Part shown: positions 10,607 to 42,153 of the stretch, piece by piece
Numbering within the stretch: the first letter of the stretch is position 1
How the letters are laid out: the number at the start of each line of letters is the position of its first letter
Source of the DNA: an uncultured Oscillospiraceae bacterium
GTDB taxonomy: Bacteria; Bacillota; Clostridia; Oscillospirales; Oscillospiraceae
DNA length: 64,000 bases
Direction of reading: 5' to 3'
Assembly: GCA_900764755.1 (NCBI GenBank)
Contig: CAAFPE010000046.1
Location: 30,964 to 94,963, forward strand
The notes under the pieces: generated by a model
What the model was told of the DNA's origin: nothing
What the model saw: only the letters and a program-made list of their open reading frames with translations
Databases searched by the model: none
Position numbers and translations under genes: made by a program

Positions 10607-12703
10607 ATGAAACGTATGTTGAAAATTGCGTTGGACAATGCTGTGGCGTTAGGCGTTATTATCATCATTTTGTTTTTGTTCATCCCTCTGCCAACATTTT
10701 TGCTGGACGTTTTATTGATTATCAATATTGGACTTTCCATCATGATCCTCATGATCACGATGAACATATCTGAAGCGCTCGAGTTTTCCATATTTCCATC
10801 GTTGCTGCTTGTGACGACGTTGTTTCGGCTCGGCTTGAATGTGTCCAGCACGAAGTTGATCCTCTCCACTGGCTATGCAGGCGAGGTCATTCAAAATTTC
10901 GGCCAGTTGATCACCAGTGGGAACATCGTGATCGGCGTGGTGATCTTCCTGATCATTGTTTTGGTTCAGTTCATTGTCATTACAAAGGGCGCGGAGCGTG
11001 TAGCTGAAGTGGCGGCTCGCTTTACTCTGGATGCCATGCCGGGTAAACAGATGGCCATCGATGCTGACTTGTCCTCCGGCCTCATCAATGAGCAGGAAGC
11101 TCGGATACGTCGTGGTAAGATTCAAAAGGAGGCAGATTTCTACGGTGCTATGGACGGCGCCACGAAAATCGTGAAAGGCGACGCTGTCATGTCCCTGATT
11201 ATCACGCTGATCAATTTTGTGGGTGGCGTGATCATTGGTGTTGTGATGGGCGGCGGCGACTTTAGTTCTGTACTTCAGAACTACTCGATTGTTACCATTG
11301 GCGATGGACTGGTTTCGCAGATGCCGGCCTTGATGATTTCCACGGCGACCGGCATGATTGTGACGCGGTCCGTTTCAGAGGGAAGCCTCAACAGGGATGT
11401 TGTGGGGCAGTTCAAGGCGCAGCCCCGCGCTTTCATGACCACAGGCGTCATTTTGATGTTCCTTGCGGCGATTCCTAACACACCCCATGTGTCTTTGGTG
11501 GTGGGTGGCATGGCGCTGATTGGCGGAGGCTATTTCATCAAGAAAAATATGGATCAGCAGCAGGCGGCCATAGAAGCGGATGCGGTTGAAAAGCAGGAGG
11601 AGCTTCCTCCAAGTGAGGGAGACTATTATAAGAATATCGACAATGTCTATACCCTTTTGAATGTAGAGCCTATTGAAATGGAATTTGGTTACAGCCTGAT
11701 TCCCATGGTGGATGAGAGTCATGGTGGAAAGCTGATCAACCGAATTGTGATTTTCCGCAGGCAGTATGCACAGGATATGGGGTTTGTGTTCCCATCGATT
11801 CGGATCCATGATGCATCTTCCCTGGGTACAAATCAATATGTGATTCGGATTCGAGGCGAAGAGGTGGCCAGAGGGGAAATCCTGGTGGATTACTATTTGG
11901 CACTGGAGCCGGCAAAGCCTTTGGGCGAGATCGATGGAATTGAGACCATTGAGCCGGCTTATGGGATTCCGTCCAGGTGGATCCTGCCGGAGGACCGGGA
12001 ACTTGCGGAGGTGTACGGATATACGGTGATCGATCCTCTGTCCGTTATGCTGACGCACCTTTCTGAGACGGTTAGAAAACATGCGTATGAACTGCTGAAT
12101 CGGGCAGAAACAATCCAACTGGTTGAAAATCTGAAGCGCTTTTCCCCTGAACTGGTTGAGGAAGCGGTGCCAGGTGTCGTTTCCTATGCGGTGCTGGAGA
12201 AGGTGCTCAGGAACTTGCTGAGAGAGGGAGTGCCGATCAAAGACCTGGGTACGATTCTTGAAACGCTTGTAGACGGGCTAAGTCAGGGCCGGGATATTGA
12301 GACTGCCACAGAGCAGGTGCGCGGAGCGCTGGCGCGGACAATCACACATCGCTTTTGTGAGGACGGGCAGCTGCGTGTTATCACACTGGATGCAGAAGTG
12401 GAGACGAAAATTGTGTCTTCGCTGACCCGCAACGAGCAGGGTGTCTATCTGGCACTTGGATCGGACCTGATGCAGCAGATCGTTGGACAGATGGGCGAGC
12501 ATATCCGGAAATTCAACGAGTTGTCACAACGGCCTATTATCTTAGTCAGCCAGGTCATTCGAGGGTATTTCAGCAAAATGATCACGCAGTTCTATCCGGA
12601 TGTCTATGTACTCTCCTTCAATGAGATAACAGGTTCCGTACAAATTCAGGCGATTGGTAACATTACCATGGACGCACCGGTCAGAAAGGCGGTGGGGACA
12701 TGA
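10607..12703 (+). CDS. flhA: flagellar export gate protein FlhA
   Basis: 698 aa with an FHIPEP family N-terminal TM domain and a cytoplasmic C-domain. Confidence 0.9.
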   Translation: MKRMLKIALDNAVALGVIIIILFLFIPLPTFLLDVLLIINIGLSIMILMITMNISEALEFSIFPSLLLVTTLFRLGLNVSSTKLILSTGYAGEVIQNFGQLITSGNIVIGVVIFLIIVLVQFIVITKGAERVAEVAARFTLDAMPGKQMAIDADLSSGLINEQEARIRRGKIQKEADFYGAMDGATKIVKGDAVMSLIITLINFVGGVIIGVVMGGGDFSSVLQNYSIVTIGDGLVSQMPALMISTATGMIVTRSVSEGSLNRDVVGQFKAQPRAFMTTGVILMFLAAIPNTPHVSLVVGGMALIGGGYFIKKNMDQQQAAIEADAVEKQEELPPSEGDYYKNIDNVYTLLNVEPIEMEFGYSLIPMVDESHGGKLINRIVIFRRQYAQDMGFVFPSIRIHDASSLGTNQYVIRIRGEEVARGEILVDYYLALEPAKPLGEIDGIETIEPAYGIPSRWILPEDRELAEVYGYTVIDPLSVMLTHLSETVRKHAYELLNRAETIQLVENLKRFSPELVEEAVPGVVSYAVLEKVLRNLLREGVPIKDLGTILETLVDGLSQGRDIETATEQVRGALARTITHRFCEDGQLRVITLDAEVETKIVSSLTRNEQGVYLALGSDLMQQIVGQMGEHIRKFNELSQRPIILVSQVIRGYFSKMITQFYPDVYVLSFNEITGSVQIQAIGNITMDAPVRKAVGT

Positions 12704-13518
12704 GTGATGAAACTGTTTGTGCAACGCAAACCTACACAGAGCAGGAGATTGCGTCAATGGATACCACTGACCTGCTGTTGCTCTATAAGCAGACTGGAGA
12801 TGCTACTCTTAAATGGCCGCTGGTCATGCGGTATGAGGATCTGATTCGAAATACAGCCCTTCGTGTTCGGAGTGTGTACAGCGGCTTTGCCCAGATTGAC
12901 GATATTGTGAACGAGGGTATTTTAACGCTGCTGAACGCGATTGATAAATTTGAACCAGAGCGAGGCGTTAAATTTGAAACCTATGTTGCGAAGCGGATTC
13001 GTGGAATGGTGTATGACCTTGCTCGAAAACAGGATTGGACGCCACGCAATATTCGTCAGCGTGCTGGGGAAATTGACCATGCAATGCAGGAGTTGACCGC
13101 TTCCTTGGGACGGTATCCAACGGAGGCTGAGTTGATTGCAAGCCTGGGAACGACGAAAGAACGATACCAGAAAGATGTAGCTGGGATTGTATTGAGCAAC
13201 ATCGTGTCGTTGGATATGCTTTTGGAGGTGAAGGATGCGGATGATTACAGAGTCGAGGTCCCGACTGGAGATGTCGCCGTGCAGCCTGAAAAAGCATTGG
13301 AGCGGAAAGAACTGCGCCGGACATTGGCGGAGGCCATCACGAAGCTGAAAGAGAATGAACAGATCGTGCTCTCGCTTTACTATGAAAAAAATCTGAGCAT
13401 GAAAGAGATTGCTCAGGTGATGCAGCTCAGTGGACCAAGAATCTCTCAAATTCATGCCAAAGCAATTGGAAAGCTGCAGGATTACATGAAACACTATCTC
13501 CAGGGCGAGGAGATCTAG
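12700..13518 (+). CDS. fliA: flagellar sigma factor FliA/SigD (sigma-28)
   Basis: Sigma-70 regions 2, 3 and 4 are present (region 4.2 HTH at KEIAQVMQLSGPRISQIHAKAI). ATGA overlap with the flhA stop. No flhF or flhG lies between flhA and fliA. Confidence 0.85.
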   Translation: MSDETVCATQTYTEQEIASMDTTDLLLLYKQTGDATLKWPLVMRYEDLIRNTALRVRSVYSGFAQIDDIVNEGILTLLNAIDKFEPERGVKFETYVAKRIRGMVYDLARKQDWTPRNIRQRAGEIDHAMQELTASLGRYPTEAELIASLGTTKERYQKDVAGIVLSNIVSLDMLLEVKDADDYRVEVPTGDVAVQPEKALERKELRRTLAEAITKLKENEQIVLSLYYEKNLSMKEIAQVMQLSGPRISQIHAKAIGKLQDYMKHYLQGEEI

Positions 13519-15712: not shown

Positions 15713-16184
15713 ACTTGTTATTGGCATCGCTGATATGAAAATGGCAAAAGAACGCGGAATGCTGGTGACGTACGCTTTAGGTTCCTGCATCGGTATCTGT
15801 TTCTATGACGCAAAGATTAAATTGGGCGCTATGGTCCATATTATGCTGCCCATCAATATGGAAACCGGGCGCACTCATACCATGAAATACGCTGATACTG
15901 GAATTCGAGAGACCATAAGACTGATGGAAGCCAAAGGGGCACTGCGAAGCCGGATCACAGCAAAAATTGCTGGAGGTGCAAAAATGTTTTCGGTCAGCGG
16001 CGGCGGAGCCCTTGGAAATATCGGACAGCGAAATATTGAGAGTGTGCATTTGTGTTTGAAACGGGAAAACATTCGCATTCTCAGGGAGGATGTAGGAGGA
16101 AGCTCGGCCCGTACGCTGCTGTTTGATGTTTCAAATGGTATGGGCTGTGTGCGCTGCTATGGCAAGCCAGAACTCATTATTTGA
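15702..16184 (+). CDS. cheD: chemoreceptor glutamine deamidase CheD
   Basis: N-terminus LVIGIADMKMAK...ALGSCIGICFYD is collinear with B. subtilis CheD. GTG start overlaps the cheC stop. Confidence 0.85.
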   Translation: MEDKLVIGIADMKMAKERGMLVTYALGSCIGICFYDAKIKLGAMVHIMLPINMETGRTHTMKYADTGIRETIRLMEAKGALRSRITAKIAGGAKMFSVSGGGALGNIGQRNIESVHLCLKRENIRILREDVGGSSARTLLFDVSNGMGCVRCYGKPELII

Positions 16185-16213
16185 CGATTCACTCGGAAAG
16201 GAGCGTTACGGAT

Positions 16214-17128
16214 ATGTTGGAGGATAATAAAAAGGGGATCTTGTTGGAGTCCGGTACAAACGAAATCGAGGTCATGCAGTTTACCATTGATGGGAGCCTG
16301 TATGGGATCAACGTTGCGAAAGTGAAAGAGATCCTCGTTTCTGAGCCGGTGAAACCCATGCCGCACTCGCATCCTGCCGTCGAGGGAATTTTTAAGCCAC
16401 GCGATACCGTGCTGACGGTGGTAGATCTGCCGAAATACTTGTTGGGTGAACCCCACGAGAAGGTTCCGAAAGATCTGTTCATTGTCACCAACTTCAACAA
16501 AATGAATATCGCGTTTCGTGTTAATACCGTGGTGGGGATCAGCCGAATTTCCTGGAAGGACATACAGAAGCCGGATAAGACCGTGTCTGGTGGAGAAGAG
16601 GGGGTTGCCACCGGGATTGCACAGTGTGGAGAAGAGTTGGTTACGATTCTGGATTTTGAGAAAATCGTTGCAGAGATTGCGCCGGAGACTACCATCCAGA
16701 TGTCGGAAATCGACCGCCTGGGGAATCGGGAGCGGAGCGATGCTGCAATTTTGGTCGCTGAGGATTCTGTATTGCTCAGCAGGATGATCGAGGAGGCCCT
16801 GCACAAGTCTGGTTATGTCAATACGAAAATGTTTCCAGATGGTCAGGCACTGTGGGATTACCTGGAGACTCTTCGGGGCAGAGAGGATATGGGAGATCTT
16901 GTGGCGCTGATTATCACAGATATTGAGATGCCGCAGATGGATGGACACCGCCTTACAAAGCTGATTAAGGATGATAAGATGTTCAAGCATCTTCCCGTGA
17001 TTATTTTCTCCTCTCTCATTACTGAGGAGATGCGTAAGAAAGGCAAGGAAGTTGGGGCGGACGAGCAGATGAGCAAGCCTGAGATCGGGCATCTGGTTCA
17101 GGTGATTGACCACCTGCTGTACAGGTAA
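16214..17128 (+). CDS. cheV: chemotaxis coupling protein CheV (CheW-like plus REC domains)
   Basis: N-terminal CheW-like domain (ILLESGTNEIEVMQF...YGINVAKVKEIL) and C-terminal REC (ILVAEDS...ITDIEMPQMDG). AGGAG RBS before the ATG at 16214. Confidence 0.85.
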   Translation: MLEDNKKGILLESGTNEIEVMQFTIDGSLYGINVAKVKEILVSEPVKPMPHSHPAVEGIFKPRDTVLTVVDLPKYLLGEPHEKVPKDLFIVTNFNKMNIAFRVNTVVGISRISWKDIQKPDKTVSGGEEGVATGIAQCGEELVTILDFEKIVAEIAPETTIQMSEIDRLGNRERSDAAILVAEDSVLLSRMIEEALHKSGYVNTKMFPDGQALWDYLETLRGREDMGDLVALIITDIEMPQMDGHRLTKLIKDDKMFKHLPVIIFSSLITEEMRKKGKEVGADEQMSKPEIGHLVQVIDHLLYR

Positions 17129-17285
17129 ATAGGGTCCGTTCGCGGTAGCATGAAGCTTGCAAGGACTTCTTGCTTGGACATACCGCAGTTTAGTTGACAG
17201 GGATGTATCAGACGGTCAAGTCACCTGGCGTATGGGTTGGGAAGTGCTCCCTGCATAGAAAAAGTATATTGTGGAGGTAAGCGCC

Positions 17286-18590
17286 ATGGCCAATAAGTAT
17301 ATTGTGAGACAGGCAATCAAGGATGCGAAGGGCGAGATCCTTGGTTATGAGATCCTGTATCACGGAGAGAATCAGGCATTCGGCAGTGATGCTGGCGCCG
17401 CCAATGACTTCGCCGCGGCGGATACAATTTACAGCTTTCTGACTCAGAACAGCACAAGAGGATTGAAAGGGTCATTAAATTTTATGACCTTCACCACTAT
17501 GCTTTTGATGAAAAAAACCCCGAAGCTATTCGATAAATCGGAACTTGTGATCCAAATCGATGATAGTGTGATCATTCATCCACTGTCGATGCACTTTGTG
17601 CATCAGTATGCCAAAGAGGGCTATAAAATCGCGGTCAACGAGTTCCAGTTTGCTCCACGTTACCTGACGCTGCTGGATAGTATCGATTATATCAAGCTCA
17701 ATATCCAGACATCTGCCGATCTCGCCATGCATAATACGATCGATATTGCCCACAGCATGAATAAGAAGTGTATCGTCACAAACATCCGCACAGAGGAGGA
17801 GTATAACCGGGCGGTTACCTTGGGCGCGGATGCGCTGGAGGGGCCATACGTTGCAGATAGGCTGACAACGAAGGCGCACAGCGGAGCCTACCTTCAGAGC
17901 AATTTCTTCCGCCTGATGGTGGCGGTGACAAAGGATGAACCGGATGTGGATGAAATCGAACGGCTCATCTCCATGGATGCGGGACTGACCTATGGTCTTT
18001 TGAAAATAGCGAACTCCGTATACTTTGCACTGCGCCACCGGGCTACCACAATTCATCAGGCCATCATGACCCTTGGGCTGGGTCAGTTGAAGCAGTGGAT
18101 CTATCTCCTCAGCGCCAGCAACGCCAATGGCGAACAGGTGGATTCTGGGACAGAGGAGTTTTTGAAGCTTTCTTTCATGCGGGCTAACTTCTGCAGCGAG
18201 TTGATGAAGTATGCGGCAGATATGCCGATTTCCAAATCGGAAGCCTATCTTATGGGGATGTTCTCCACGCTGAATCATCTGATCGAGGCACCATTGGAGG
18301 AGATCCTGAACGAAGTTCCGGTTGCCGAGGAGATCAAGTCCGCACTGCTTCGGAAAGAGGGGCGCTGCGGAAAGCTGTATGAGTTGGTTTTGAGTTATGA
18401 GGCGGCGGATTGGAATGCCATCAGCAGCCTGGCCGAAGAGTTGGAAATTCCCAATCAGGTACTTACCAATGTGTATTTCGTGTGTATGGAAAACGTGAAT
18501 GTTTTGTGGGAGCAGTTAAACCACTCATACGTGGAGGCGGAGCCGGATCCCAATTCCAGTGCGCAGCAGGAAAAAAAGCCTGGCATTTAA
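17286..18590 (+). CDS. EAL-like (apparently degenerate) plus HDOD domain protein; putative c-di-GMP sensor or phosphodiesterase
   Basis: The N-terminus resembles an EAL domain (GEILGYEILYHG, with EIL in place of EAL). The DDFGTG-equivalent region reads NEFQF and the IKID-equivalent reads IKLN. The C-terminal half is HDOD-like (GLTYGLLKIANSVYF...). GGAGG RBS before the ATG at 17286. Confidence 0.6.
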   Translation: MANKYIVRQAIKDAKGEILGYEILYHGENQAFGSDAGAANDFAAADTIYSFLTQNSTRGLKGSLNFMTFTTMLLMKKTPKLFDKSELVIQIDDSVIIHPLSMHFVHQYAKEGYKIAVNEFQFAPRYLTLLDSIDYIKLNIQTSADLAMHNTIDIAHSMNKKCIVTNIRTEEEYNRAVTLGADALEGPYVADRLTTKAHSGAYLQSNFFRLMVAVTKDEPDVDEIERLISMDAGLTYGLLKIANSVYFALRHRATTIHQAIMTLGLGQLKQWIYLLSASNANGEQVDSGTEEFLKLSFMRANFCSELMKYAADMPISKSEAYLMGMFSTLNHLIEAPLEEILNEVPVAEEIKSALLRKEGRCGKLYELVLSYEAADWNAISSLAEELEIPNQVLTNVYFVCMENVNVLWEQLNHSYVEAEPDPNSSAQQEKKPGI

Positions 18591-18604
18591 TGCCAGGCTT
18601 TCTG
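18575..18604. terminator. bidirectional rho-independent terminator between the convergent EAL-HDOD and ComFB-domain genes
   Basis: AAAGCCTGGCAT-tta-ATGCCAGGCTTT forms a 12-bp stem with an A-run on one side and a T-run on the other. The EAL-HDOD stop codon TAA forms the loop. Confidence 0.7.
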
Positions 18605-18639
18605 TGCGTCGAAAATGGTGAACAGAGCGATGGAACTGC

Positions 18640-19554
18640 TCACTTGGCTTGGTCATGGCGGGGATTTTCCAGGACCTCTTTGCAGGCGTGCAGGATCTGA
18701 GCTGTGATAGTGGCGTTGAATCGGCTCTCATACATGGCGAGCCGAGGACGAATGTTGTTTTTTGGCATAACAACGTACTTGGGAGGCAGATGATTCAGAG
18801 CCAGGGCAATGACGTCTTTCCGACATTGTTCGCAGGGGCAGAGCCCAAAAAGCGAAATGTATTTTGCTGCCATCTCCTCCACCAGCAGTTCCATGATGTT
18901 TACGATTACTACCATATCGCCGGTATTGGCAGGCCTCCCTGCGTTGGAAGGTTCATCTGTACTGCTGTGAGAATTTTCTGACGCATGGGTCTGGATCTTA
19001 GGATCTTCGTCCTGTGATACGCCAACTGGTTCACGTTCAACGCCGGACAGAGGCACTGTATCAGCAGGAATGACTGGGTCGAGAGGGACATCTTCCCTTG
19101 ATATTTCCACAGGCTGGGGCGGCATCTCCTCTGGAGATGTGAGCTTGATTGACGGCTCCACATCGGGCTGATCGGATGGCTCGGTCTCTGCGGCGGCTTC
19201 GGCAGTCTCTTCCAACTGGGTTGACGAGGAGGACGGAAGTTCATCCTCTGAGGAGGCCTCAGGCGGTGTGAGAGCCGGTTCATTTTCAAAAAGCCCCTCA
19301 TGGTTCTCCAGGGCCTCCTCCTGCATAAGACTTGCTTCCAGCGCGTCCTTGATCTTGGAGGCTACGGCAAGGTCACTCTGCATGGAGGCGATGATAGGTG
19401 GTGTCGGTACAGGCATCTGAGGAGGCGGAACCTGAGAAGCTGCCGGCGCTTCACTGAGAGTTTGGGTGGAGATGGAGGTTCCACCGCGGCTTCTGCTGAG
19501 CAGATTCATGACGTGGGCAGTCTTGCTGGTGTTGGATTTCTTAGCTGACGACAT
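18640..19554 (-). CDS. ComFB-domain protein with a ~210-aa acidic Pro/Glu/Ser-rich disordered N-terminal region
   Basis: The C-terminal ~90 aa (NIMELLVEEMAAKYISLFGLCPCEQCRKDVIALALNHLPPKYVV...NPRH) matches the ComFB family Cys pattern C-x-C-x2-C...LALN.LPP.YV. The N-terminus is low-complexity and acidic. Confidence 0.55.
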   Translation of the reverse strand: MSSAKKSNTSKTAHVMNLLSRSRGGTSISTQTLSEAPAASQVPPPQMPVPTPPIIASMQSDLAVASKIKDALEASLMQEEALENHEGLFENEPALTPPEASSEDELPSSSSTQLEETAEAAAETEPSDQPDVEPSIKLTSPEEMPPQPVEISREDVPLDPVIPADTVPLSGVEREPVGVSQDEDPKIQTHASENSHSSTDEPSNAGRPANTGDMVVIVNIMELLVEEMAAKYISLFGLCPCEQCRKDVIALALNHLPPKYVVMPKNNIRPRLAMYESRFNATITAQILHACKEVLENPRHDQAK

Positions 19555-19590
19555 ATCAAAACTCCTTGTATGCGAAAGAACTGGAAGCGG

Positions 19591-20370
19591 TTAGCAGCTC
19601 GTCGAGGACGGGAAACGGGGGCCGGCGATGATGTCGACGACCTCTCTCAGGTCAGCGGCGGGTTTCGATGACGGTTTGTATGTCAATACGCTTTGACCGT
19701 GCGCGGGTGCCGTCGCAACGTGTACGCTCCGGCGTATTTTGGCCGAGAGCACGCGACTGTCCAGCTGGGCGGCAATTTCCTCCGCCATCTCCACGACCTC
19801 CCGGGACAGGGTGAGCCGGGCGTTGAATTTGTTGAACAGAAGGCCGATTACTTTTAAGTCTGGGTTGAAGGAGGCGCGGACCGCTTCGACGGTATCCTGA
19901 ATCTGAGAGATGCCAACCAGGCTGAGGATCTCCGCTTCCATGGGGATGATCAAGCCCGTGGAGGCGACGTATGCGTTGATGGTCAGAAGATTCAGTGCAG
20001 GAGGCGTGTCGATGATAAAAAAGTCATAATCAGGTTTCAGCGTACTGATCAGCTGATGAAGCATAAATTCACGACGGGGTGCGGTAAACTCAGCTTCTGC
20101 CGCGGAGAGCATGATGTCGGAAGAGAGCACGTCTCCATATTCTGTATGTGCAATGGCCTCATAGGGGCTTTTCGTGCCCTTTAAGACATCATAAATGGTA
20201 TAGCTGCCGCCGATGTCCAGACCAAGTGAAAAAGCCAGGTTTCCCTGTGGATCCAGATCAATGCCCAGCACCCGCGCACCGCGCTGGCGAAGGCCGCAGA
20301 CCAGGGCGGAGGCGACGGTGGTTTTTCCCACGCCGCCCTTTTGATTTGTAACGGTTATGACCTCTGACAA
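19591..20370 (-). CDS. ParA/Soj-family P-loop ATPase
   Basis: Deviant Walker A (TNQKGGVGKTT), and the GIDLDPQGN and FFIIDTPP motifs. Immediately upstream of, and co-oriented with, the ComFB-domain gene. Confidence 0.8.
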   Translation of the reverse strand: MSEVITVTNQKGGVGKTTVASALVCGLRQRGARVLGIDLDPQGNLAFSLGLDIGGSYTIYDVLKGTKSPYEAIAHTEYGDVLSSDIMLSAAEAEFTAPRREFMLHQLISTLKPDYDFFIIDTPPALNLLTINAYVASTGLIIPMEAEILSLVGISQIQDTVEAVRASFNPDLKVIGLLFNKFNARLTLSREVVEMAEEIAAQLDSRVLSAKIRRSVHVATAPAHGQSVLTYKPSSKPAADLREVVDIIAGPRFPSSTSC

Positions 20371-20523
20371 GGTTGATCCCTCCTGGAAGAAAAACTATGA
20401 ATTTTGCTCTTATTTTTATTGTACTATATGTCGATAGAAAAGCATAGAGGGAATAAGCATTTTTTTGAAAAGATAATCATAAGCAAGCAAAAAAATCAGC
20501 TTGTGCGAAAGGAGTAAATCACT

Positions 20524-22947
20524 ATGGCTTCTATCAATGGAGTAGGCAGCAGCAACATGAGAAGCATTTATGGGAACCGAAATGTGATTAGCGGCCTGGC
20601 CAGCGGCATGGATACGGAATCCATGATCGAAAATGCTGTTTCTGGCTATAAAATGAAGATTACCAGCCTTCAGCAAAAGCAGACAAAGGTGACCTGGCAG
20701 CAGCAGGCGCTGAGAAGCATCATTGACAAGCTGGCTGATTTCTCACAGAAATACACCTCCTATGCCTCCAGTACAAACCTGCTGAGTTCCAGTTTTTTCA
20801 ACAACTCACTCAAGATCTCAGCCCAAGGGACTTATGCGGACAAGGTCTCTGCCACCGGAAAGACCAGCAGCACAGTCCAGATCCTCGGCGTGAAGCAGCT
20901 GGCGTCTGCGGCCACCCATAATATACCTGCAAACTGGGCGGATGGGAGCATCGACCTGTCTGCGCTGACCTCGGAGCAGATGAAAGAGACGACAACGATC
21001 AGCAATCTGACCGGCAGTCTGACCATCGCCAATGGCAACAGCGATTCTGTCACCATCGATCTGACAGAAGAGGATATGGCCGGCGTGGATACGATGGAGA
21101 AGCTTGCGGCTAAGATCAACGAAAAGCTGGAGGAGGCTGGCTATAAGGAAAAAGGCGAAAACAAAGGAAAGATCTGGGTGGAGTGTACGGGTGACACCAT
21201 CAATCTCAAGGGCAACAACGCCACCTACATCAAATCAGCCAGCGGCAAGATCCGGGATACGCTGGGGATCCAGCCCGGAGAGAAGGCCGAGACTCTGAGC
21301 AAGTCCGCCGGCAAGGATCTGAGCACCGAGATCACCAGGGCGGAGCAGCTGGATGGCAAGGAGATCAGTGTGACCCTGGACGGTGTGACAAAGAAGTTCA
21401 CTCTGAAAACTCTGGACGATCAGAATCAACCGCTGGACCATCAAAAAGTAATGGAGAAGCTTGGGGAGGACTTACAGACTGCGTTTGGGAAAAACAAAGT
21501 GACCCTGCAACAGAATGGGGATGTCTGGGAACTGAAGGCCGCCGAAGGCGGGTCCACCCTGAGCGTATCCAGTTCTGTCGGCAAGCTGCTTGGCCTGGAG
21601 AGCAACCATGAGACCAGCTACATGAACATGAACAAAACGCTGGGCGATCTTATTGGGGAAGATACGCTGAAAAACAAAGACTATTGGATCAAGGCGGAAG
21701 GCAAAGTTACTGAGAAGGACGGTAAGTATCTGGACGAGAAGGGCAACCTGGTCAAGAAAGCCGATGATGGCACTTACTACCGAGTGGACGACAAGGGCGA
21801 ATACCTGTGCGACTTCAAAGTAAATGGAGAATCTGTCGGGACCTTCACCAAGGACAGCACGCTGGAGAGCGTGATGAGCGCCATCAATAAGAGCACCAAG
21901 GCGGGGGTAGACGTCACCTATTCCAAGATCACCAACGAGTTCCAGTTCACCTCCCGGGAGACCGGCTCTCAGGCTAAGATCGAGTTGGATGGACTGGCCG
22001 CCAAACTATTTGGCAAAGTGGAGACACAGGGCAAGGACGCTGTGTTCTCCATGGCTGTCAATGGGAAGGTATTTGACGGCATCAGCCGGAGCGGGAACAC
22101 CTTTGATGTGGACGGCCTTCAGGTCTCCTTGAAGGGGACTTTCGGCACCTATGGCGATGATAACGAACTCGATGTTATGAAGGATAAGGGCACTCCTGAA
22201 GAGAAAATTGCGGCTGTAGGTAAGGACGCCGTTTCCTTTACCTCTGCCGCCGACTCGGATAAGATCGTGGACGCCCTCAAGAAATTCGCCGAGGATTACA
22301 ACGCCATGGTGAAGGAGATCAAGGACGCCTATTCCACCCTGCCGCTCCAGAAGTCCAACGGATCGTCCTATGAGCCGCTGACCAGCGATGATCTGGAGGG
22401 TATGTCCGAGACAGAGATCAAAAACTATGAGGAAAAGGCAAAGCAGGGCCTTCTCTTTGGCGACCGGGATCTGTCCAATCTGTATAACCAGCTGACCAGT
22501 TCTATCACGTCCAACACCGATCTGAAAAAAATCGGGATCGAAGTGTCGTACAGCAACGGCATGAGCACCCTGACGGTGAATGAGGAAAAGCTGCGCGCCG
22601 CTCTGGACAGTGATCCGGAGCAGGTCCAGGAAGTCTTTAATTCTGCCACAGGGAATGGAAAGACGATGATGGAGTCCATGAAGTCCACGCTGGACCGGTA
22701 TGGCAGTGTGATGGGCAAGAAGGGGATCCTGGTGGATCGGGCCGGCTCTACCAAGGCCTCCAGCACGCTGCTCACCAATACCATGCAAAAGACGATTGAC
22801 AACTATGAATCGCAGATCCAAAAGTGGAAGGATAAGATGACCGACCAGGTGGATCGCTATACCAGACAGTTTTCCCAGCTGGAGCAGCTGATCGCGCAGA
22901 TGAACGCCCAGAGCTCGTCGCTCAGTGGACTGATGGGTGGATTTTGA
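20524..22947 (+). CDS. fliD: flagellar filament capping protein FliD (hook-associated protein 2), long 807-aa form
   Basis: N-terminal SGLASGMDTESMI motif and C-terminal FliD_C (RYTRQFSQLEQLIAQMNAQSSSL). Extended central domain. Confidence 0.85.
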   Translation: MASINGVGSSNMRSIYGNRNVISGLASGMDTESMIENAVSGYKMKITSLQQKQTKVTWQQQALRSIIDKLADFSQKYTSYASSTNLLSSSFFNNSLKISAQGTYADKVSATGKTSSTVQILGVKQLASAATHNIPANWADGSIDLSALTSEQMKETTTISNLTGSLTIANGNSDSVTIDLTEEDMAGVDTMEKLAAKINEKLEEAGYKEKGENKGKIWVECTGDTINLKGNNATYIKSASGKIRDTLGIQPGEKAETLSKSAGKDLSTEITRAEQLDGKEISVTLDGVTKKFTLKTLDDQNQPLDHQKVMEKLGEDLQTAFGKNKVTLQQNGDVWELKAAEGGSTLSVSSSVGKLLGLESNHETSYMNMNKTLGDLIGEDTLKNKDYWIKAEGKVTEKDGKYLDEKGNLVKKADDGTYYRVDDKGEYLCDFKVNGESVGTFTKDSTLESVMSAINKSTKAGVDVTYSKITNEFQFTSRETGSQAKIELDGLAAKLFGKVETQGKDAVFSMAVNGKVFDGISRSGNTFDVDGLQVSLKGTFGTYGDDNELDVMKDKGTPEEKIAAVGKDAVSFTSAADSDKIVDALKKFAEDYNAMVKEIKDAYSTLPLQKSNGSSYEPLTSDDLEGMSETEIKNYEEKAKQGLLFGDRDLSNLYNQLTSSITSNTDLKKIGIEVSYSNGMSTLTVNEEKLRAALDSDPEQVQEVFNSATGNGKTMMESMKSTLDRYGSVMGKKGILVDRAGSTKASSTLLTNTMQKTIDNYESQIQKWKDKMTDQVDRYTRQFSQLEQLIAQMNAQSSSLSGLMGGF

Positions 22948-23352: not shown

Positions 23353-23742
23353 ATGGATGAAACAGTTATTCGGACTTCACTGGTTTTGGAGAAGCGGATG
23401 TATGCCCTTTTGGTTGAAGGGCTGGATCTGACCAGACAGCTGGCCGATGCGGTGGATCGGGGCGATCCGGTGGCGATGCGGCTGGTGTTGAGTATGCGTG
23501 CGGAGCCCGTCGAAAAGCTGCGCAGTGTGAGACAGCTTCTGGAGGAGCAGAAAAACGCTCTTCCGGCAGAGGATTCCGTCCGGCTGGCTGCCCTCCTCAA
23601 CGGAGAGGCAGCTCAGCGGGCGGAGGAAGGCCCGCTTGCTGAGCAGGTGGCGGCCAACCGTCGGCTGCTGACACAGCTCTTTGAGATGGATAAGGTGGTC
23701 AGCCTCAAATTGGGGAAAGACGAATCATACTATCAAAAATGA
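23353..23742 (+). CDS. hypothetical helical protein downstream of fliS (possible FliT-like chaperone)
   Basis: 129 aa, predicted all-helical and acidic. The position after fliS matches fliT in Bacillus. No diagnostic motif. Confidence 0.35.
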   Translation: MDETVIRTSLVLEKRMYALLVEGLDLTRQLADAVDRGDPVAMRLVLSMRAEPVEKLRSVRQLLEEQKNALPAEDSVRLAALLNGEAAQRAEEGPLAEQVAANRRLLTQLFEMDKVVSLKLGKDESYYQK

Positions 23743-23798: not shown

Positions 23799-24656
23799 TT
23801 AAGCTTCAGGATGAGAAATGGCCCATAGAGGAGCGCCGTTGCTGGTGCTTGCAGATAGTTCGTCCAGAATCAACTGCGGGTCCCATTCCATAAGGCTGTG
23901 CTCTGTGCTGTTGGGGTCTGCCACCAGGAGCGTGCCGGAGAGGGTGACGCCGCGGAGCAAAATAAAATGACCTGTCGAAGTGAAGTGTCCCGGACCCATC
24001 AATGCTACCACCAGTTTTCCAGAGAGCAGGGCTTCCTGAAGGGAGTCCGGAGTTTGATTTTTGAGTGGGATGGCGGTCAGACCATAAGCGGCGGAAATAT
24101 CCTCCACAATGGAAAGATGTGATCCGCTTTTTGGGGCCCAGTGGCCGTCTTGATAAGCGCGTTCCGCCATCTGTGCCGGGTCGATGTCATGTGCGGTCAG
24201 ACTTGTGACCACCATCGACATGGCGGTTGGTCCACAGCCATATCGGCCGATGTCATCGGTGCCATAGGGCTGGCTTGCCCAGGGGGCCTCTGACTGGTTA
24301 TAATAAGTGATCTCCGTGATGCCGCCGGTGAGAATGCTGTGTCCATCTGCGGGCTTCAGTTCTGTAAGCGCGGGGTCAGACAACGGCGTGTCTGTGCGTA
24401 TGGACGGGGCGTCGGCAATTTGAATATCCATCTCTGTGCCACCATCGTTTTTCTCGGCAAGCCCTGACCACCAGGATGAGATGCTGTCCGCCGCCTGCTC
24501 CCCGATTTCAGCAGCTGAGTGGATGCATTGGCGAACAGGTGCGGTGATCTGCTGGTAGACGGGAGGGGCAAAAAAATAACAGGCAAAGAGTTCGGCCCCG
24601 CCGATACAGAGTGCGGCAAGCAGCAACAGCTGCAAGATAGGTTTCTTTCGTTTCAC
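23799..24656 (-). CDS. secreted or membrane-anchored papain-like cysteine peptidase (Peptidase_C39-like / YvpB-like)
   Basis: GTG start at 24656 after an AGAGGTG RBS. N-terminus KRKKPILQLLLLAALCIG is signal- or anchor-like. Catalytic-Cys motif YGCGPTAMSMV and a downstream His (GHFILLRG). The longer ORF in the track, reaching 25391, overlaps the FtsE-like gene and is rejected. Confidence 0.6.
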   Translation of the reverse strand: MKRKKPILQLLLLAALCIGGAELFACYFFAPPVYQQITAPVRQCIHSAAEIGEQAADSISSWWSGLAEKNDGGTEMDIQIADAPSIRTDTPLSDPALTELKPADGHSILTGGITEITYYNQSEAPWASQPYGTDDIGRYGCGPTAMSMVVTSLTAHDIDPAQMAERAYQDGHWAPKSGSHLSIVEDISAAYGLTAIPLKNQTPDSLQEALLSGKLVVALMGPGHFTSTGHFILLRGVTLSGTLLVADPNSTEHSLMEWDPQLILDELSASTSNGAPLWAISHPEA

Positions 24657-24764
24657 TGGTTCACACCTCTGTCCTCTGATCTGTCGATCACATATCATTA
24701 TATCAAGACTGCATCGGATTTCAAGAGGCGTGCGCAGGCATATCAACAGACAGGAGCGCCAATT

Positions 24765-25493
24765 ATGCCCACAATCACGTTGGAAAACGCAGCCAAATAT
24801 TATAAGCAGGACAAAAACAGCGGGAGAGGGAAGCGAACAGAAATCGGGGTGATCGACGTTACCCTGACGGTTGAGCAGGGGGAATTTGTTTTTGTTACCG
24901 GGAGCAGCGGAGCGGGAAAAAGCACACTGCTCAAGCTGATCACTGGGGAGTTGAAAGCAGATCGCGGCACGGTATTTCTGGGTGGAAAGGATTTGACGAA
25001 GCTCCTGCGCTGGAGCGGAAATCGAGTCAAAGGGATGTTCGGAATTGTGACGCAAACGGGCTCTCTTGGCAGAAAGCTGACCGTGGAGGAGAATCTGATG
25101 CTGGCCGCGAGAATTGGTCGAGGCCGATTTGAGACCACGAAGCAAGTGAACGCACGCATAGAAAAGGTACTGGGTCTTGTCGGTATGAGGGGGGTAGAAA
25201 AGCACCATCCTGTGGAGTTGTCGATTGGAGAGTGTCGGCGTGTGGAATTGGCGCGAGCGCTGATCAACAGCCCGCCTGTTCTGGTGCTGGATGAGATCAC
25301 AGCAGGTTTGGATGACGATAATATCTGGGACATCTTTCATCTGCTCACTGAGGTCAACCGAAGGGGCAGCACTGTGATCATGGCGACTCATGCCGGTGCC
25401 TATGTCAATATCATGCGCAAAAGGGTCATAACGCTTGTGGATGGACGTATTTTAGGTGATGTACAAAGAGGAAGATACGGGGACGTAATGTAG
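24765..25493 (+). CDS. FtsE-like ABC-type ATPase with a degenerate signature motif, and no adjacent ftsX
   Basis: Walker A (GSSGAGKST) and Walker B (VLVLDEI) are present. Collinear with B. subtilis FtsE through the C-terminus (MATH...VDGRILGD). The ABC signature LSGGQ is replaced by LSIGE(CRR). AGGAG RBS before the ATG at 24765. Confidence 0.75.
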
Positions 25494-29263: not shown

Positions 29264-29770
29264 TTGGTGACGATCTGCAGCGACGAATGGGTGAAAAAAA
29301 TGGCCGAAGCGCTGGTCTGCGAGATTTTAGAAGTCATGTCTGACATTCATCTGCGGCTTGCCCAGAGGCAGGAAGAAGTGGACAGTCGGAAGTTGGAGGC
29401 AATCTACGGCTTCGTGGAAGGTGAATACCAGATCGAACTGAGATTTTTAGCAGAACCAAGATTCTTTTTCAGACTGGCGCAGAATATGGCTGGTTCTCAG
29501 TTGAGCAGCGAAGAAATCCAGGAATATGCAATGGAATTTTTTAACGTGTTGTGCGGCAGGTTTCTTTCTGAACTGTATAAGGCGGCGAATACTGCTGCCA
29601 AGTTCTATCCTACGAAATATGAACTATACCCTGACTTGATGTGCCTTAAAGATCAGGTCATGTTGAGTACCCTGTATTTTATCAGTGATGAGCAGGAGCT
29701 GGCCGCATTTTCCTGGTCAGCCAAACCAATTATTGATCTGCTGAGGAGGAGCATGAATGTTGAAGCGTAG
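29264..29770 (+). CDS. CheX/CheC-like chemotaxis phosphatase family protein
   Basis: Contains the E-x2-N-x22-P signature of the CheC/CheX/FliY family (EFFNVLCGRFLSELYKAANTAAKFYP). TTG start 8 nt after GAAGGGGGG. Its stop overlaps the following cheY-like gene. Confidence 0.5.
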   Translation: MVTICSDEWVKKMAEALVCEILEVMSDIHLRLAQRQEEVDSRKLEAIYGFVEGEYQIELRFLAEPRFFFRLAQNMAGSQLSSEEIQEYAMEFFNVLCGRFLSELYKAANTAAKFYPTKYELYPDLMCLKDQVMLSTLYFISDEQELAAFSWSAKPIIDLLRRSMNVEA

Positions 29771-30140
29771 AATCATGGTTGTGGACGATTCCCGTGTCGT
29801 ATATGCAGAAATGCGGAAGATGCTGGAGGGCAGCGAAATAGAGATTGCAGCTTTCTGTCGGAGCGGAGAGGAAGCATTGGAGCAGTATGAAGCGGTTAAA
29901 CCGGAATTAGTGACACTTGATATTGTGATGCCCGGCATGGATGGTTTGGAGACCTGTGAGAGGCTGAAAAAGAGTCATCCTGATGCAGCGATTTTTATGG
30001 TGTCTTCCATGGCCTACGATGATATTATCGACCAGTCAGTCTCTATGGGGGCGAAAGGATTTTTGTTTAAGCCGTTTACCAAGGAAACACTTTTAGAGGG
30101 GCTGCGAGGAGCGTTTAAAGCAATCGACGGTGCGGAGTAA
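29757..30140 (+). CDS. CheY-like single-domain response regulator
   Basis: RIMVVDDSRVVYAEMRKML, the LDIVMPGMDG phosphorylation-site region and KGFLFKPF. GAGGAGGAG RBS. Confidence 0.85.
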   Translation: MLKRRIMVVDDSRVVYAEMRKMLEGSEIEIAAFCRSGEEALEQYEAVKPELVTLDIVMPGMDGLETCERLKKSHPDAAIFMVSSMAYDDIIDQSVSMGAKGFLFKPFTKETLLEGLRGAFKAIDGAE

Positions 30141-30184
30141 TGCAGGTTTTGTCCTGGCTTGACAGGGAAGGGAGTTATAACGGT

Positions 30185-32032
30185 ATGGCGGAGAGAAAGT
30201 CACAGGAAAACGATTTGATCTTTGCGTTGGACATCGGCACACGAAGTGTTGTCGGCGTTGTTGGGAGGGCGGTTGAGGACCGGTTTAAAGTCCTTACGGT
30301 CGAAGCTGAGGAGCACAAAAAACGCGCAATGCTGGATGGGCAGATCGACAATATACAGCAGGTGGCTGCTTTGGTCCAAGCCGTAACGGAACGCCTGGAA
30401 CGAAAAGTGGATGTCAGGCTGGAGCGGGTTTGTGTAGCGGCTGCGGGCCGGGCGCTGCGGACGCAGGCCGGAAGCTTTGCGCTTGAACTGAATCTGGAGC
30501 AGACGATCAGCGAAGAGCAGATTAGCCAGTTGGAAGCCGGTGCAGTGTCTGCTGCTGAAGATGCGATGCAGATGGACGAGGAGAGCCGCCAACAGTTTTT
30601 CCTTGTGGGATATACAGTTGCGCAGTACCGACTGGACCACTATCCACTCTCTACCCTGATGGGCCATAAAGGCAGGCTGGTCGAGGCGGATGTGGTAGCC
30701 ACTTTTTTGCCTTGCGAGGTGGTGGAAAGCCTGTACTCAGCCATGCGTGCGGCCGGTCTTCAAGTGGCAAATATGACATTGGAACCGATTGCCGCCATGA
30801 ATGCAGCAATTCCGGCGGAGCTCCGCCTGTTGAATCTGGCGTTGGTTGATATAGGCGCCGGAACCACTGACATTGCCATCTGCCGAGATGGCAGTGTGGT
30901 CGGTTATACGATGGTGACGATGGCAGGTGATGAGATCACAGAAACACTTATGCGGGCATTTTTGGTAGACTTCAAAACAGCAGAGGACCTCAAACGCGGT
31001 ATTCAGAACGGTGGGGACCTGCGATATACGGACATCTTGGGCATCGAAACGACAAAAACTCATGAGGAAATATGTGCTGTGATCGACGAACCAATGCAGC
31101 GTCTCGCAGAGGCGATCTCTGAGCAGGTGTCTATGGTGAATGGCGGTGCGCCGTCTGCACTTTTTCTTGCTGGCGGTGGAAGTAAACTGCTGGGGCTTCG
31201 TGAGAAAATTGCCGGCTGCCTTGATATGGATGAGAAACGCGTAGCGATCGCCGGGAATAACTATGCTAAGAGTGCTTTTTCCGATGATCTGAAGATTGAG
31301 AATCCTGAATATGCTACACCGCTTGGTATTGCGATCTCCGCTGGTCTGGGCCTTCTGAATGACAGCTACATGGTGACACTCAATGGTAAGACAGCAAAGC
31401 TGTTCCGGAGTGGGACGCTGACCCTGCGGGACATCCTTTTGATGAACGGATATACCTATGGAGATATGCTGGGGAAGTCCGGAAAGAGTCTGAGCGTTGT
31501 CCTGGATGGCAAGCACATGGTTTGGCGCGGCGAGCCCTTTGTCCCTGCGGTATTGTCGATCAATGGAGCAGAAGCGGCGATCACCACAGTGGTTCATGCC
31601 GGCGATCAGATCAGTTTTATTCCAGCGAGACCAGGTGCCGATGCAGAAAAGACACTGGCAGATGTATTGGGGCGTGATTTTTCAGGTCAGGTGCTGGTGA
31701 ATAACCAAAAAGCTGAACTGGATACACCGCTGCGGTCGGGCGATGTCATTTTGACTTTGAAACGGGAACCAACAGAGAAACTCCAGGAGAAGCAGACATC
31801 TGCACCGGTAACGGAACGTGGAAAGTCGATTGCTATTATGTTCAACGGTGAGGAGCTGCATCTGCCAGGTAAGGAAAGCGGACTTCCGTATTATCTGATG
31901 GATCTTCTTCAGTATGCGGACTTGGACTTTGAGAAAATAGAGCATCCTGTGCGCCTTGAGGTTAACGGCGTGGAGAGTGGATTCCGGCAGCTGATTCGTG
32001 ACGGGGATTCTGTTACTATCTGCTGTACTTAG
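30185..32032 (+). CDS. FtsA-like actin-fold ATPase with a C-terminal extension of three ThiS/MoaD-like beta-grasp repeats
   Basis: Phosphate-1 motif (FALDIGTRSVVGVVG), phosphate-2 motif (LALVDIGAGTTDIAI, FtsA-type DIGxGTTD) and adenosine motif (LFLAGGGSKLLGL). The C-terminal ~210 aa holds three (I/V)NG...GD.(I/V) units (VLSINGAEAAITTVVHAGDQISFIP; VLVNNQKAELDTPLRSGDVILTLK; LEVNGVESGFRQLIRDGDSVTICCT). An alternative ATG at 30140 overlaps the cheY-like stop. Confidence 0.6.
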   Translation: MAERKSQENDLIFALDIGTRSVVGVVGRAVEDRFKVLTVEAEEHKKRAMLDGQIDNIQQVAALVQAVTERLERKVDVRLERVCVAAAGRALRTQAGSFALELNLEQTISEEQISQLEAGAVSAAEDAMQMDEESRQQFFLVGYTVAQYRLDHYPLSTLMGHKGRLVEADVVATFLPCEVVESLYSAMRAAGLQVANMTLEPIAAMNAAIPAELRLLNLALVDIGAGTTDIAICRDGSVVGYTMVTMAGDEITETLMRAFLVDFKTAEDLKRGIQNGGDLRYTDILGIETTKTHEEICAVIDEPMQRLAEAISEQVSMVNGGAPSALFLAGGGSKLLGLREKIAGCLDMDEKRVAIAGNNYAKSAFSDDLKIENPEYATPLGIAISAGLGLLNDSYMVTLNGKTAKLFRSGTLTLRDILLMNGYTYGDMLGKSGKSLSVVLDGKHMVWRGEPFVPAVLSINGAEAAITTVVHAGDQISFIPARPGADAEKTLADVLGRDFSGQVLVNNQKAELDTPLRSGDVILTLKREPTEKLQEKQTSAPVTERGKSIAIMFNGEELHLPGKESGLPYYLMDLLQYADLDFEKIEHPVRLEVNGVESGFRQLIRDGDSVTICCT

Positions 32033-34537: not shown

Positions 34538-34545
34538 GCCGATAT
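34538..34545 (+). promoter_or_regulatory. exact sigD/sigma-28-type -10 element GCCGATAT about 95 nt upstream of the PilZ (MotI-like) gene
   Basis: GCCGATAT lies in a 345-bp divergent intergenic region. The upstream -35 is T-rich (CTTATTTTTT) rather than a canonical TAAA. B. subtilis motI is sigD-dependent, which is consistent. Confidence 0.35.
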
Positions 34546-39997: not shown

Positions 39998-40036
39998 TTT
40001 TGCTTGACCGGGACGCCAGGAAAGGAGAGACGAGAC

Positions 40037-40342: not shown

Positions 40343-40360
40343 GTCAGGAGGCTGTACATC

Positions 40361-41538: not shown

Positions 41539-41558
41539 CACACTTTCCTATCTGGATG

Positions 41559-41595
41559 CAAATATCCCCTGATGCTGTGCATCAGGGGATATTTG
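41559..41595. terminator. strong stem-loop between convergent sigF and the MarR-family gene
   Basis: CAAATATCCCCTGATG-ctgtg-CATCAGGGGATATTTG forms a 16-bp perfect stem. The flanking U-tracts are poor. Confidence 0.5.
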
Positions 41596-41619
41596 TATGG
41601 TCTGATGCCGCCGGAGGGG

Positions 41620-42081: not shown

Positions 42082-42153
42082 AAATCTGCCTCCTGTATCA
42101 TTTCGTGGCACTCGTTGTCATTAGAATACCAAATTTACAGGCGGAAAGCAAAT

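Follow-up and report, generated by a model that had tools for sequence, protein, structure and literature searches.

A 64,000-nucleotide stretch of DNA from an uncultured Oscillospiraceae bacterium (NCBI GenBank assembly GCA_900764755.1, contig CAAFPE010000046.1, positions 30,964 to 94,963 of the forward strand; hereafter the window) carries, inverted within its flagellar and chemotaxis locus, two adjacent minus-strand genes that encode a ParA/Soj-type ATPase and a ComFB-family protein. The pair is a lineage-specific operon of Oscillospiraceae-type Clostridia. We favor, tentatively and at somewhat less than even confidence, a reading in which the ComFB protein serves the ParA ATPase as its partner or adaptor and in which, through the pair, cyclic di-GMP (c-di-GMP) acts on the placement, number or activity of flagella or chemosensory arrays. 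The initial annotation, made from the sequence of the window, did not recognize the pairing as a described system, and a literature search likewise turned up no paper describing ParA together with ComFB. The elements of the operon are listed here with their window coordinates in nucleotides (nt) and product lengths in amino acids (aa):

19591-20370, minus strand: gene for the ParA/Soj-type ATPase with a deviant Walker A motif (259 aa, TTG start)
20378-20384, minus strand: putative ribosome-binding site (RBS) of the ParA gene, AGGAGGG, 7 nt 5' of the TTG start, from a reading of the sequence
18640-19554, minus strand: gene for the ComFB-family protein (304 aa, ATG start)
19562-19567, minus strand: putative RBS of the ComFB gene, AAGGAG, within the intergenic gap and 7 nt 5' of the ATG
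20407-20450, minus strand: promoter/operator block of about 45 nt upstream of the ParA gene, consensus TaCCTCTaTntTTTTTTATCGACaTnTAGTATAaTaAAntTAAGAg
18571-18601, minus strand: predicted intrinsic terminator 3' of the ComFB gene, a hairpin AAAGCCUGGCAU-UAA-AUGCCAGGCUUU with a U run after it

Both open reading frames (ORFs), which the initial annotation had placed on the minus strand between cheV/EAL-HDOD and fliD, were recovered at the same positions; on independent metagenome scaffolds that encode an identical ParA protein, gene callers yield the same 259- and 304-aa pair. Neighboring NCBI records from an Oscillospiraceae bacterium name the two products "ParA family protein" (MBS6532734.1) and "late competence development ComFB family protein" (MBS6532733.1), and other members of the same protein cluster are labelled Intestinimonas sp. 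In the window, 36 nt separate the ParA gene from the ComFB gene, and each has its own RBS. The terminator, which a simple hairpin scan had missed, was found by RNA folding; it overlaps the convergent EAL-HDOD gene at that gene's 3' terminus, and the 86-nt stretch that holds it (18560-18645) folds at −36.1 kcal/mol, with z = −5.9 relative to shuffled sequences. The short gap, the two RBSs and the terminator are together consistent with a two-gene operon. An Rfam search in and around the operon returned no known RNA at E ≤ 1.

Conservation of the pair was assessed across related genomes. A search of a sequence database with the ComFB protein gave 640 homologues, and patterns taken from an alignment of homologues were used to scan GTDB at one genome per species, where 246 stretches contained a relative. 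The proteins of the window were placed on the best 80 of these 246 loci by tblastn, and ORFs were extracted. A ParA orthologue lies immediately upstream of the ComFB gene and on the same strand in 75 of the 80 loci; in the remaining 5, a contig end falls at the ParA position, so that the arrangement is present in 75/75 informative loci. The distance from the ParA stop to the ComFB start across the 75 loci ranges from −4 to 109 nt, with a median of 35. Loci that bear a family or genus name all belong to Oscillospiraceae-type Clostridia (Intestinimonas, Flintibacter, Oscillibacter, Lawsonibacter, Flavonifractor, Acutalibacter, Pygmaiobacter, Allofournierella and Neglecta). The surroundings are kept as well. 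A divergent fliD gene stands no more than 500 nt away in all 64 loci with enough DNA, and a convergent EAL-HDOD gene stands no more than 800 nt from the ComFB gene in 65 of 71. Results thus bore out the expectation that the pair is retained with flagellar genes in related genomes. Individual loci depart from the common layout: an insertion of approximately 9.6 kb separates ComFB from EAL-HDOD in L018, an additional methyl-accepting chemotaxis protein (MCP) gene stands between these two genes in L031 and L064, and L077 has no flagellar genes within 10 kb downstream of ComFB.

The promoter block is equally constrained. The window copy reads CCTCTATGCTTTTCTATCGACATATAGTACAATAAAAATAAGAG, and its core, CTATCGACATATAGTA, occupies positions 20422-20437; the only other match in the window has 3 mismatches (0.1 expected by chance). 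Among related loci with enough upstream DNA, the block was present in 67/67, with an exact ATCGAC in 61 and one mismatch in 6, and it lies at a fixed 93 to 107 nt from the codon for the Walker A lysine (mode 96). Its retention at this fixed distance in every such locus argues that the ParA-ComFB operon is under its own strongly constrained promoter or operator. The block holds a TATAAT-like −10 element without a TTGACA-like −35. A sigma-D promoter was also considered for the operon and was rejected, as TAAA-N15-CCGATA is absent from the whole window and from the 67 upstream regions; the operon therefore does not appear to be an obvious sigma-28 late gene.

Judged from its sequence, the product of the first gene is a ParA/Soj-type ATPase that has kept every catalytic motif, in agreement with the class proposed initially. 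Pfam assigns the 259-aa protein to AAA_31 (159 bits; cut-off, 27), CbiA (97 bits; cut-off, 25.4) and ParA (46 bits), and the top NCBIfam model is ParA_partition, at 102 bits and below its cut-off of 180. The translation places the nucleotide-binding signature as follows:

20317-20340, minus strand: deviant Walker A motif KGGVGKTT, residues 11-18, with signature lysine K11

In an alignment of 74 distinct sequences, comprising the window copy and orthologues that share 55 to 91% identity with it, KGGVGKTT is invariant, including K11 and K16, as are D40 of Walker A' (DLDPQGN) and D121 of Walker B (IIDTPP). The best solved relatives are the orphan ParA of Mycobacterium smegmatis (4PFS, 148 bits) and a ParA family protein (8RAY, 142 bits), followed by Soj of Thermus thermophilus (126 bits) and of Helicobacter pylori (113 bits), whereas MinD proteins score 38 to 68 bits and FleN (5J1J) scores 24.6 bits. 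These scores led us to classify the enzyme as Soj/ParA type and to rule out an orthologue of FlhG/FleN, the more so as the ORFs scanned in the 40-kb locus included no FlhF GTPase. The Walker A lysine comes after just 10 residues, the orthologues have the same start, and the N-terminal extension with the FlhF-activating helix (DQAxxLR) is lacking. R185, conserved at 99%, aligns with the DNA-binding R189 of Bacillus subtilis Soj. The C terminus of the window copy is AGPRFPSSTSC, which lacks a basic or amphipathic tail. About one-third of the orthologues end in ...RPK..F[KR]QKYISKFFN (L016, L021, L024, L034, L041, L042, L058 to L060, L066, L070, L073, L075, L078 to L080 and others), a tail that looks similar to the amphipathic helix by which MinD proteins are targeted to the membrane; in the Oscillibacter clade, the terminal residues are ...RPAPRSKWF.

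The 304-aa product of the second gene consists, from N to C terminus, of a basic helix, a second helix, an acidic linker and a ComFB domain:

19489-19533, minus strand: Motif 1, residues 8-22, SNTSKTAHVMNLLSR, a near-invariant and predicted basic amphipathic helix, from the alignment and an AlphaFold2 (AF2) model
19297-19401, minus strand: Motif 2 (predicted helix 2), residues 52-86, beginning PPIIASMQSDLAVASKIKDALEASL, from family conservation and the AF2 model
18925-19296, minus strand: variable acidic linker rich in Pro, Glu and Ser, residues 87-210, predicted to be disordered, with a predicted local distance difference test score (pLDDT) below 50
18661-18906, minus strand: ComFB domain, residues 217-298, from Pfam PF10719 and the predicted fold

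Motif 1 is the most conserved stretch of the protein and the feature that says most about a possible mechanism. Residues 10-20 (SKTAHVMNLLS) are invariant in the first homologue alignment, and the family pattern [ST]KT[AS][HR][VI][ML]N[LV]L is found in practically all 75 loci; single substitutions, S for N among them, are rare. The AF2 model, built on 18 homologues, predicts helices at residues 10-22 (pLDDT, about 73) and 53-86 (pLDDT, about 84). The second of these carries the conserved pattern PPI..S...DAAVS.QIK.ALE..L in the homologue alignment, and dimerization and a second binding surface are candidate roles for it. The initial annotation had described the entire N-terminal ~210 residues as disordered; this stands for approximately residues 87-210, the acidic linker, and fails for residues 10-22 and 53-86, which form conserved predicted helices. 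Charge is sharply partitioned, with residues 1-25 at net +5 and containing no acidic residue, and the linker at net −24 with 19 Pro; median net charges among orthologues are +4.5 for the N terminus and −17.5 for the remainder of the protein. Linker length varies from 59 to 206 residues among orthologues, and no tandem repeats were found in its DNA.

The N-terminal module appears to be private to this family. A word-index search with the N-terminal 80 residues gave no candidates, and an exhaustive profile search was used instead. Against 1.84 billion representative proteins, the profile of the module matched, at E ≤ 1e-3, 178 clusters. Among the best 150 of these 178 matches, the module almost always starts at residue 1; a ComFB domain follows in 96 of the 150, nearly all others look like truncated or frameshifted fragments, and no C-terminal domain other than ComFB was found among the 150.

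Assignment of the C-terminal region to ComFB, which the initial annotation had proposed from a residue pattern, held in both profile and structure comparisons. PF10719 is the sole Pfam match of the 304-aa protein (65.9 bits; cut-off, 25; residues 218-298, covering profile positions 1-83 of 83), and phmmer aligned the domain with B. subtilis ComFB (BsComFB; 4WAI) at E 1.4e-6. In the AF2 model, residues 217-296 adopt the ComFB fold (pLDDT, about 90), and Foldseek matched the model to 4WAI (target template modeling score, 0.70 to 0.76; probability, 1.00) and to Synechocystis CdgR with c-di-GMP (8HJA; probability, 1.00). The NCBIfam equivalog model for Bacillus ComFB, NF052654, gave 38 bits against a cut-off of 120. 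As the initial annotation stated, the family has been reported to act as cyclic dinucleotide receptors: ComFB proteins of four phyla bind c-di-GMP, and c-di-GMP-bound BsComFB inhibits flagellar function, not flagellar synthesis, according to the sections of the published accounts that deal with binding and motility (PMC12448109, PMC12265714). In the same sections, the downstream target of ComFB is given as unknown even in B. subtilis, and ComFB genes are noted near flagellar genes in B. subtilis and in Treponema denticola (PMC12448109, PMC12265714). The family survey lists, in the part of its text that treats dimerization and c-di-GMP contacts, residues N4, E7, D33, A36, L37, N40, K/R41, Y46, V47 and Y55 in BsComFB numbering (PMC12448109). 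Counterparts, based on the match that phmmer aligned with 4WAI and on 78 distinct domain sequences aligned with one another, are given with their conservation:

BsComFB N4: N219, 99%
BsComFB D33: D247, 97%
BsComFB A36: A250, 99%
BsComFB Y46: Y260, 100%
BsComFB V47: V261, 90%
BsComFB N40: N254, 76%
BsComFB E7: equivalent mostly Gln
BsComFB K/R41: position 255, His or Asn, not basic
BsComFB Y55: R269, no aligned aromatic residue; an invariant Tyr275 lies six residues downstream

According to the mutational part of the survey, D33A and N40A weaken binding by BsComFB, and K41A keeps sub-micromolar affinity (PMC12448109). Residue conservation thus lends partial support, and binding of c-di-GMP or c-di-AMP by the domain is likely, though not assured. 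Cys239, Cys241, Cys244 and Cys291 are invariant, a pattern that would be compatible with a metal site.

The operon sits in a Firmicute-type flagellar and chemotaxis locus that makes up the first ~40 kb of the window, with gene names taken from a reading of Pfam matches. The order is flgD, flgE-like, motA, motB, fliM, fliY, cheY, fliO, fliP, fliR, flhB and flhA; then the sigma-28-type gene, two rod genes, cheC, cheD, cheV, EAL-HDOD and the inverted ParA-ComFB pair; and then fliD, fliS, a 129-aa ORF and the MCP, fapA, CheX-like, receiver-domain, FtsA/PilM-like and PilZ genes. Landmarks around the pair are as follows:

12700-12703, plus strand: 4-nt overlap of flhA and the sigma-28-type gene, at the usual flhF/flhG slot
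16181-17128: CheV gene
17271-18590, plus strand: EAL-HDOD gene with a degenerate EAL domain, convergent to the ComFB gene
20524-22947, plus strand: FliD gene, divergent from ParA and followed by fliS

The absence of flhF/flhG from between flhA and the sigma gene, reported initially for the window, extends to its relatives. In the window, flhA (10607-12703) overlaps the sigma-28-type gene (12700-13518) and therefore leaves no flhF/flhG at the canonical slot, and in 63 related loci the distance from flhA to the sigma gene is −1 to 113 nt, so that these genes are missing there as well. Among the ORFs scanned in the first 40 kb of the window, neither an SRP-type (signal recognition particle-type) GTPase nor a second MinD-like gene was found.

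Two further genes of the region, both conserved neighbors of the pair, are related to c-di-GMP and speak for a cyclic dinucleotide link. The EAL-HDOD protein scores 71.5 bits for HDOD and 34.2 bits for EAL (cut-off, 31.3), the latter over the C-terminal half of the profile only. Relative to the EAL consensus, its catalytic motifs are replaced, with QIDD for ELTE, NEFQFA for DDFGTG and NIRT for EGVE, and QIDD, NEFQFA and NIRT are kept in 68 orthologues. The product is probably a non-catalytic c-di-GMP-related protein and is a possible third component of the ParA-ComFB module. Fifteen kilobases from the pair lies a PilZ-domain gene (34641-35291, plus strand) whose 216-aa product is of MotI/YcgR-like size; a perfect sigma-D-type −10 element, GCCGATAT, is found at 34538-34545, approximately 100 nt 5' of it. 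This gene points to a second, separate c-di-GMP receptor of the motility region.

In the mechanism that we propose, the ComFB protein would be an adaptor dedicated to the ParA ATPase. Motif 1, the basic helix at its N terminus, would dock on the ATP-bound ParA dimer and stimulate ATP hydrolysis, as ParB, MinE, McdB, ParP and TlpT stimulate their own ParA/MinD ATPases. The flexible acidic linker would serve as a tether, and the ComFB domain would engage a flagellar or chemotaxis component under the control of c-di-GMP (or c-di-AMP). Cycling of the ATPase on a matrix, probably the nucleoid for the window copy and maybe the membrane in orthologues with a basic amphipathic C-terminal tail, would distribute or sequester the ComFB-bound target. 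In this way a second messenger would govern where flagella are placed, how many there are or how active they are, a niche held by FlhF/FlhG in other Firmicutes. As a general rule, the partner of a ParA/MinD ATPase contacts the enzyme through a charged N-terminal stretch and handles cargo with what remains of its length; the ATPase genes adjoin cargo loci, and the partner of an orphan ParA is usually encoded alongside (Pulianmackal et al. 2023, PMC10241942). With its adjacent gene, basic conserved N-terminal helix, tether and folded C-terminal domain, the ComFB protein fits this template closely.

The pair was compared with described systems. With ComFB/CdgR receptors (4WAI; Slr1970/CdgR, 8HJA) it has in common the Pfam domain, the fold and most dimerization and ligand-contact residues, and with the ComFB of B. 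subtilis and T. denticola it shares adjacency to flagellar genes, so that a motility role would be expected here. The protein differs from these receptors in a 216-residue N-terminal extension that falls outside the architectures in the main text of the family survey, in its invariable pairing with a co-transcribed ParA ATPase, in the lack of comFA/comFC, and in a non-basic position 41, a fourth invariant Cys at 291 and a score below the NCBIfam equivalog cut-off. ParC-ParP of Vibrio and PpfA-TlpT of Rhodobacter sphaeroides likewise combine a ParA-like ATPase with an adjacent partner gene in a motility or chemotaxis locus. In Vibrio ParP, the region that contacts the ATPase stands at the N terminus, a proline-rich linker follows it, and a CheW-like domain at the C terminus binds the cargo; the ComFB protein has the same layout with ComFB in place of the CheW-like domain. 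In contrast to both of these systems, the pair comes from a Firmicute, implies an input from a second messenger, would have ComFB, not a CheW-like or MCP domain, as its cargo-binding domain, and is known from sequence alone; membership in ParC-ParP was rejected, as ComFB is the sole domain detected in the partner and no CheW-like domain was found in it.

McdA-McdB and type Ib ParA-ParB systems (ParF-ParG and delta-omega) resemble the pair in having a small ParA without an N-terminal DNA-binding domain, followed by the gene for a partner with a basic N terminus and a largely disordered body, from which an ATPase-stimulating peptide would be expected. They differ in that the cargo here would be neither DNA nor a microcompartment and in that the partner bears a folded nucleotide-receptor domain. 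MotI/YcgR PilZ brakes would produce the same expected result, a lowering of motility by c-di-GMP, and a PilZ gene is also present in the window locus; however, their receptor fold is unrelated and they involve no ATPase, so that a ComFB system would be a second, separate route. FlhF/FlhG (FleN) share the niche, with a ParA/MinD-superfamily ATPase in the flagellar locus expected to govern flagellation, and FleN together with c-di-GMP-binding FleQ is a precedent for the pairing of an ATPase with a c-di-GMP receptor. The enzyme described here is instead of Soj type, has no N-terminal activator extension, lacks a membrane-targeting helix in the window copy and has no FlhF among the scanned ORFs. 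A bolder proposal, which we regard as doubtful, is that Oscillospiraceae have swapped FlhF/FlhG for a c-di-GMP-gated ParA machine in which the helix fires the ATPase and ComFB binds to the flagellar basal body or to the chemosensory array only when c-di-GMP stands at a particular level. If this replacement took place, a reaction-diffusion ATPase under direct nucleotide control would set flagellar number, placement or engagement, and the pair would be the first ParA/MinD system with a cyclic dinucleotide receptor as its adaptor.

Several observations weigh against an adaptor role and its proposed outcome. Both the contact between ParA and the ComFB protein and the cargo of the pair are points that we infer, and the N-terminal profile has no match in the PDB at E ≤ 10, ParB- and MinE-type peptides included. 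The ParA C-terminal tails are clade specific, so the working surface of the ATPase is ambiguous between nucleoid and membrane and may differ between clades. The second DNA-binding arginine of Soj, R218, is not conserved, its equivalent being a variable His or Gly. Within the ligand site, the non-basic residue at position 255 and the lack of an aromatic residue aligned with Y55 belong here as well. The absence of flhF/flhG covers the canonical slot, with the remainder of the genomes unchecked, and the loci, all of one lineage and retrieved by patterns derived from the family itself, make the 75/75 a measure of conservation within the family and not of independent recurrence.

The ComFB protein could instead be a plain c-di-GMP-dependent flagellar brake, while the co-transcribed ParA does a separate job, such as chemoreceptor spacing or some other function at the nucleoid, without contact between the two. 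In B. subtilis, ComFB alone inhibits swimming and swarming in its c-di-GMP-bound state (PMC12265714), most ComFB proteins covered in the neighborhood and architecture sections of the family survey stand alone with no reported ATPase partner, and the contact that this explanation dispenses with is one that we infer. Yet it would leave unexplained the near-invariant basic helix and long tether found only with ComFB, the 75/75 adjacency with short gaps and the shared conserved promoter, and orphan ParA ATPases usually have a partner encoded alongside (PMC10241942). Overall, we consider a separate brake unlikely.

A transcriptional or anti-activator switch, in which nucleoid-bound ParA holds the ComFB protein and thereby sequesters or releases a flagellar regulator, such as a sigma-28-type factor, according to c-di-GMP, seems to us similarly improbable. 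FleN-FleQ of Pseudomonas, a MinD-like ATPase with a c-di-GMP-binding regulator, provides a precedent, and the operon has late flagellar genes (fliD-fliS) to one side and the sigma gene cluster to the other. Cyanobacterial receptors of the ComFB family work via transcription factors, as reported in sections of two accounts (PMC10068817; bioRxiv 10.64898/2026.03.27.713163). However, Pfam detects no DNA-binding or sigma-binding domain in either protein, the ATPase is remote from FleN (24.6 bits, versus 126 for Soj), and BsComFB alters flagellar function, not abundance.

It is also conceivable, with still lower probability, that the operon is a developmental switch under Spo0A or a sporulation sigma factor, by which motility is shut down or re-organized at the onset of sporulation or stationary phase and cyclic dinucleotide sensing is secondary; this proposal is compatible with either of the molecular mechanisms considered above. 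The PilZ gene has a perfect GCCGATAT ahead of it, whereas the block upstream of ParA, kept in 67/67 loci, does not resemble a sigma-D promoter. The reverse complement of the block, TGTCGATAAAAAA, differs at a single position from the Spo0A box TGTCGAA, and GACATATAGTA fits a CATAnnnTA-type −10 element, both of which we treat as leads only. Against this, the promoter matches are short, and several genera in the locus set are not known as spore formers.

Descent from a DNA-partition (parA) or competence (comF) module unrelated to flagella is suggested by the public names of the two proteins and by ParA_partition as the best-scoring NCBIfam model, but we reject it as very improbable, given that no ParB-like, helix-turn-helix or ribbon-helix-helix gene adjoins the pair and no comFA/comFC lies nearby, that equivalog scores are far under their cut-offs (102 versus 180 for ParA_partition, 38 versus 120 for Bacillus ComFB), that the position in the flagellar locus is kept in every locus with enough flanking DNA, and that transformation of B. 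subtilis proceeds without ComFB (PMC12265714). Assignment to a ParABS (Soj-Spo0J) partition system was likewise set aside, the downstream gene matching only ComFB in Pfam and ParA_partition scoring 102 versus 180, as was identity with the late-competence ComFB of Bacillus (NF052654, 38 versus 120), since the neighbors are ParA and EAL-HDOD, not comFA/comFC.

Additional features of the window were recorded outside the operon. Immediately after fliS, at 23353-23742 (plus strand), lies the 129-aa ORF; it has no Pfam or NCBIfam match, occupies the same position in most related loci and may encode a FliT/FlgN-like chaperone. Between the fliS group and the MCP gene, the interval 23799-25493 holds a minus-strand Peptidase_C39_2-like gene (285 aa by independent calls) and a plus-strand ABC-type (ATP-binding cassette-type) ATPase of 242 aa, and long overlapping ORFs here swell the mechanical ORF list. 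Downstream of fapA, 29264-32032 (plus strand) encodes three proteins in a row: one of 168 aa that is CheX-like, a receiver domain of 127 aa that stands alone, and one of 630 aa with an FtsA/PilM/MreB-like actin fold. It is unusual for a flagellar locus to include an ATPase of the actin type. The GC content is 0.47 to 0.54 across the flagellar and chemotaxis locus (1-40000) and 0.63 to 0.68 in 40001-52000 and 60001-64000, a high-GC flank with minus-strand housekeeping genes (FabF, 42583-43938; FabD, 44595-45869; AccC, 50167-51534). Given this sharp step, the entire motility locus may be foreign to the genome by composition.

ComFB as a cyclic dinucleotide receptor that affects motility, and the occurrence of ComFB genes near flagellar genes, are already published. 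What is new is a ParA/MinD pair, presumably for positioning, whose adaptor would be of a type not seen before and, equally, a ComFB receptor in which both the architecture and the partner are novel; the neighborhood and architecture sections of the family survey mention no ParA neighbor and no such N-terminal architecture, its supplementary tables lying outside the comparison (PMC12448109). An operon of ParA and a probable c-di-GMP receptor suggests an undescribed link from signal to flagella. ParA/MinD ATPases organize chromosomes, division sites, carboxysomes, chemoreceptor arrays and flagella, and their partners are the diverse and often unidentified element. If the proposed role is true, a partner that is itself a cyclic dinucleotide receptor would tie spatial organization directly to second-messenger signaling, and the ComFB family would gain a concrete interactor to test. 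Because the system is small and sharply defined, consisting of a pair of genes, a single invariant motif of 10 residues and a single conserved promoter, the hypothesis is directly testable. Its carriers, among them Oscillibacter, Flavonifractor, Intestinimonas and Lawsonibacter, are abundant, poorly studied, flagellated gut Clostridia, whose motility and flagellin exposure bear on host immunity.

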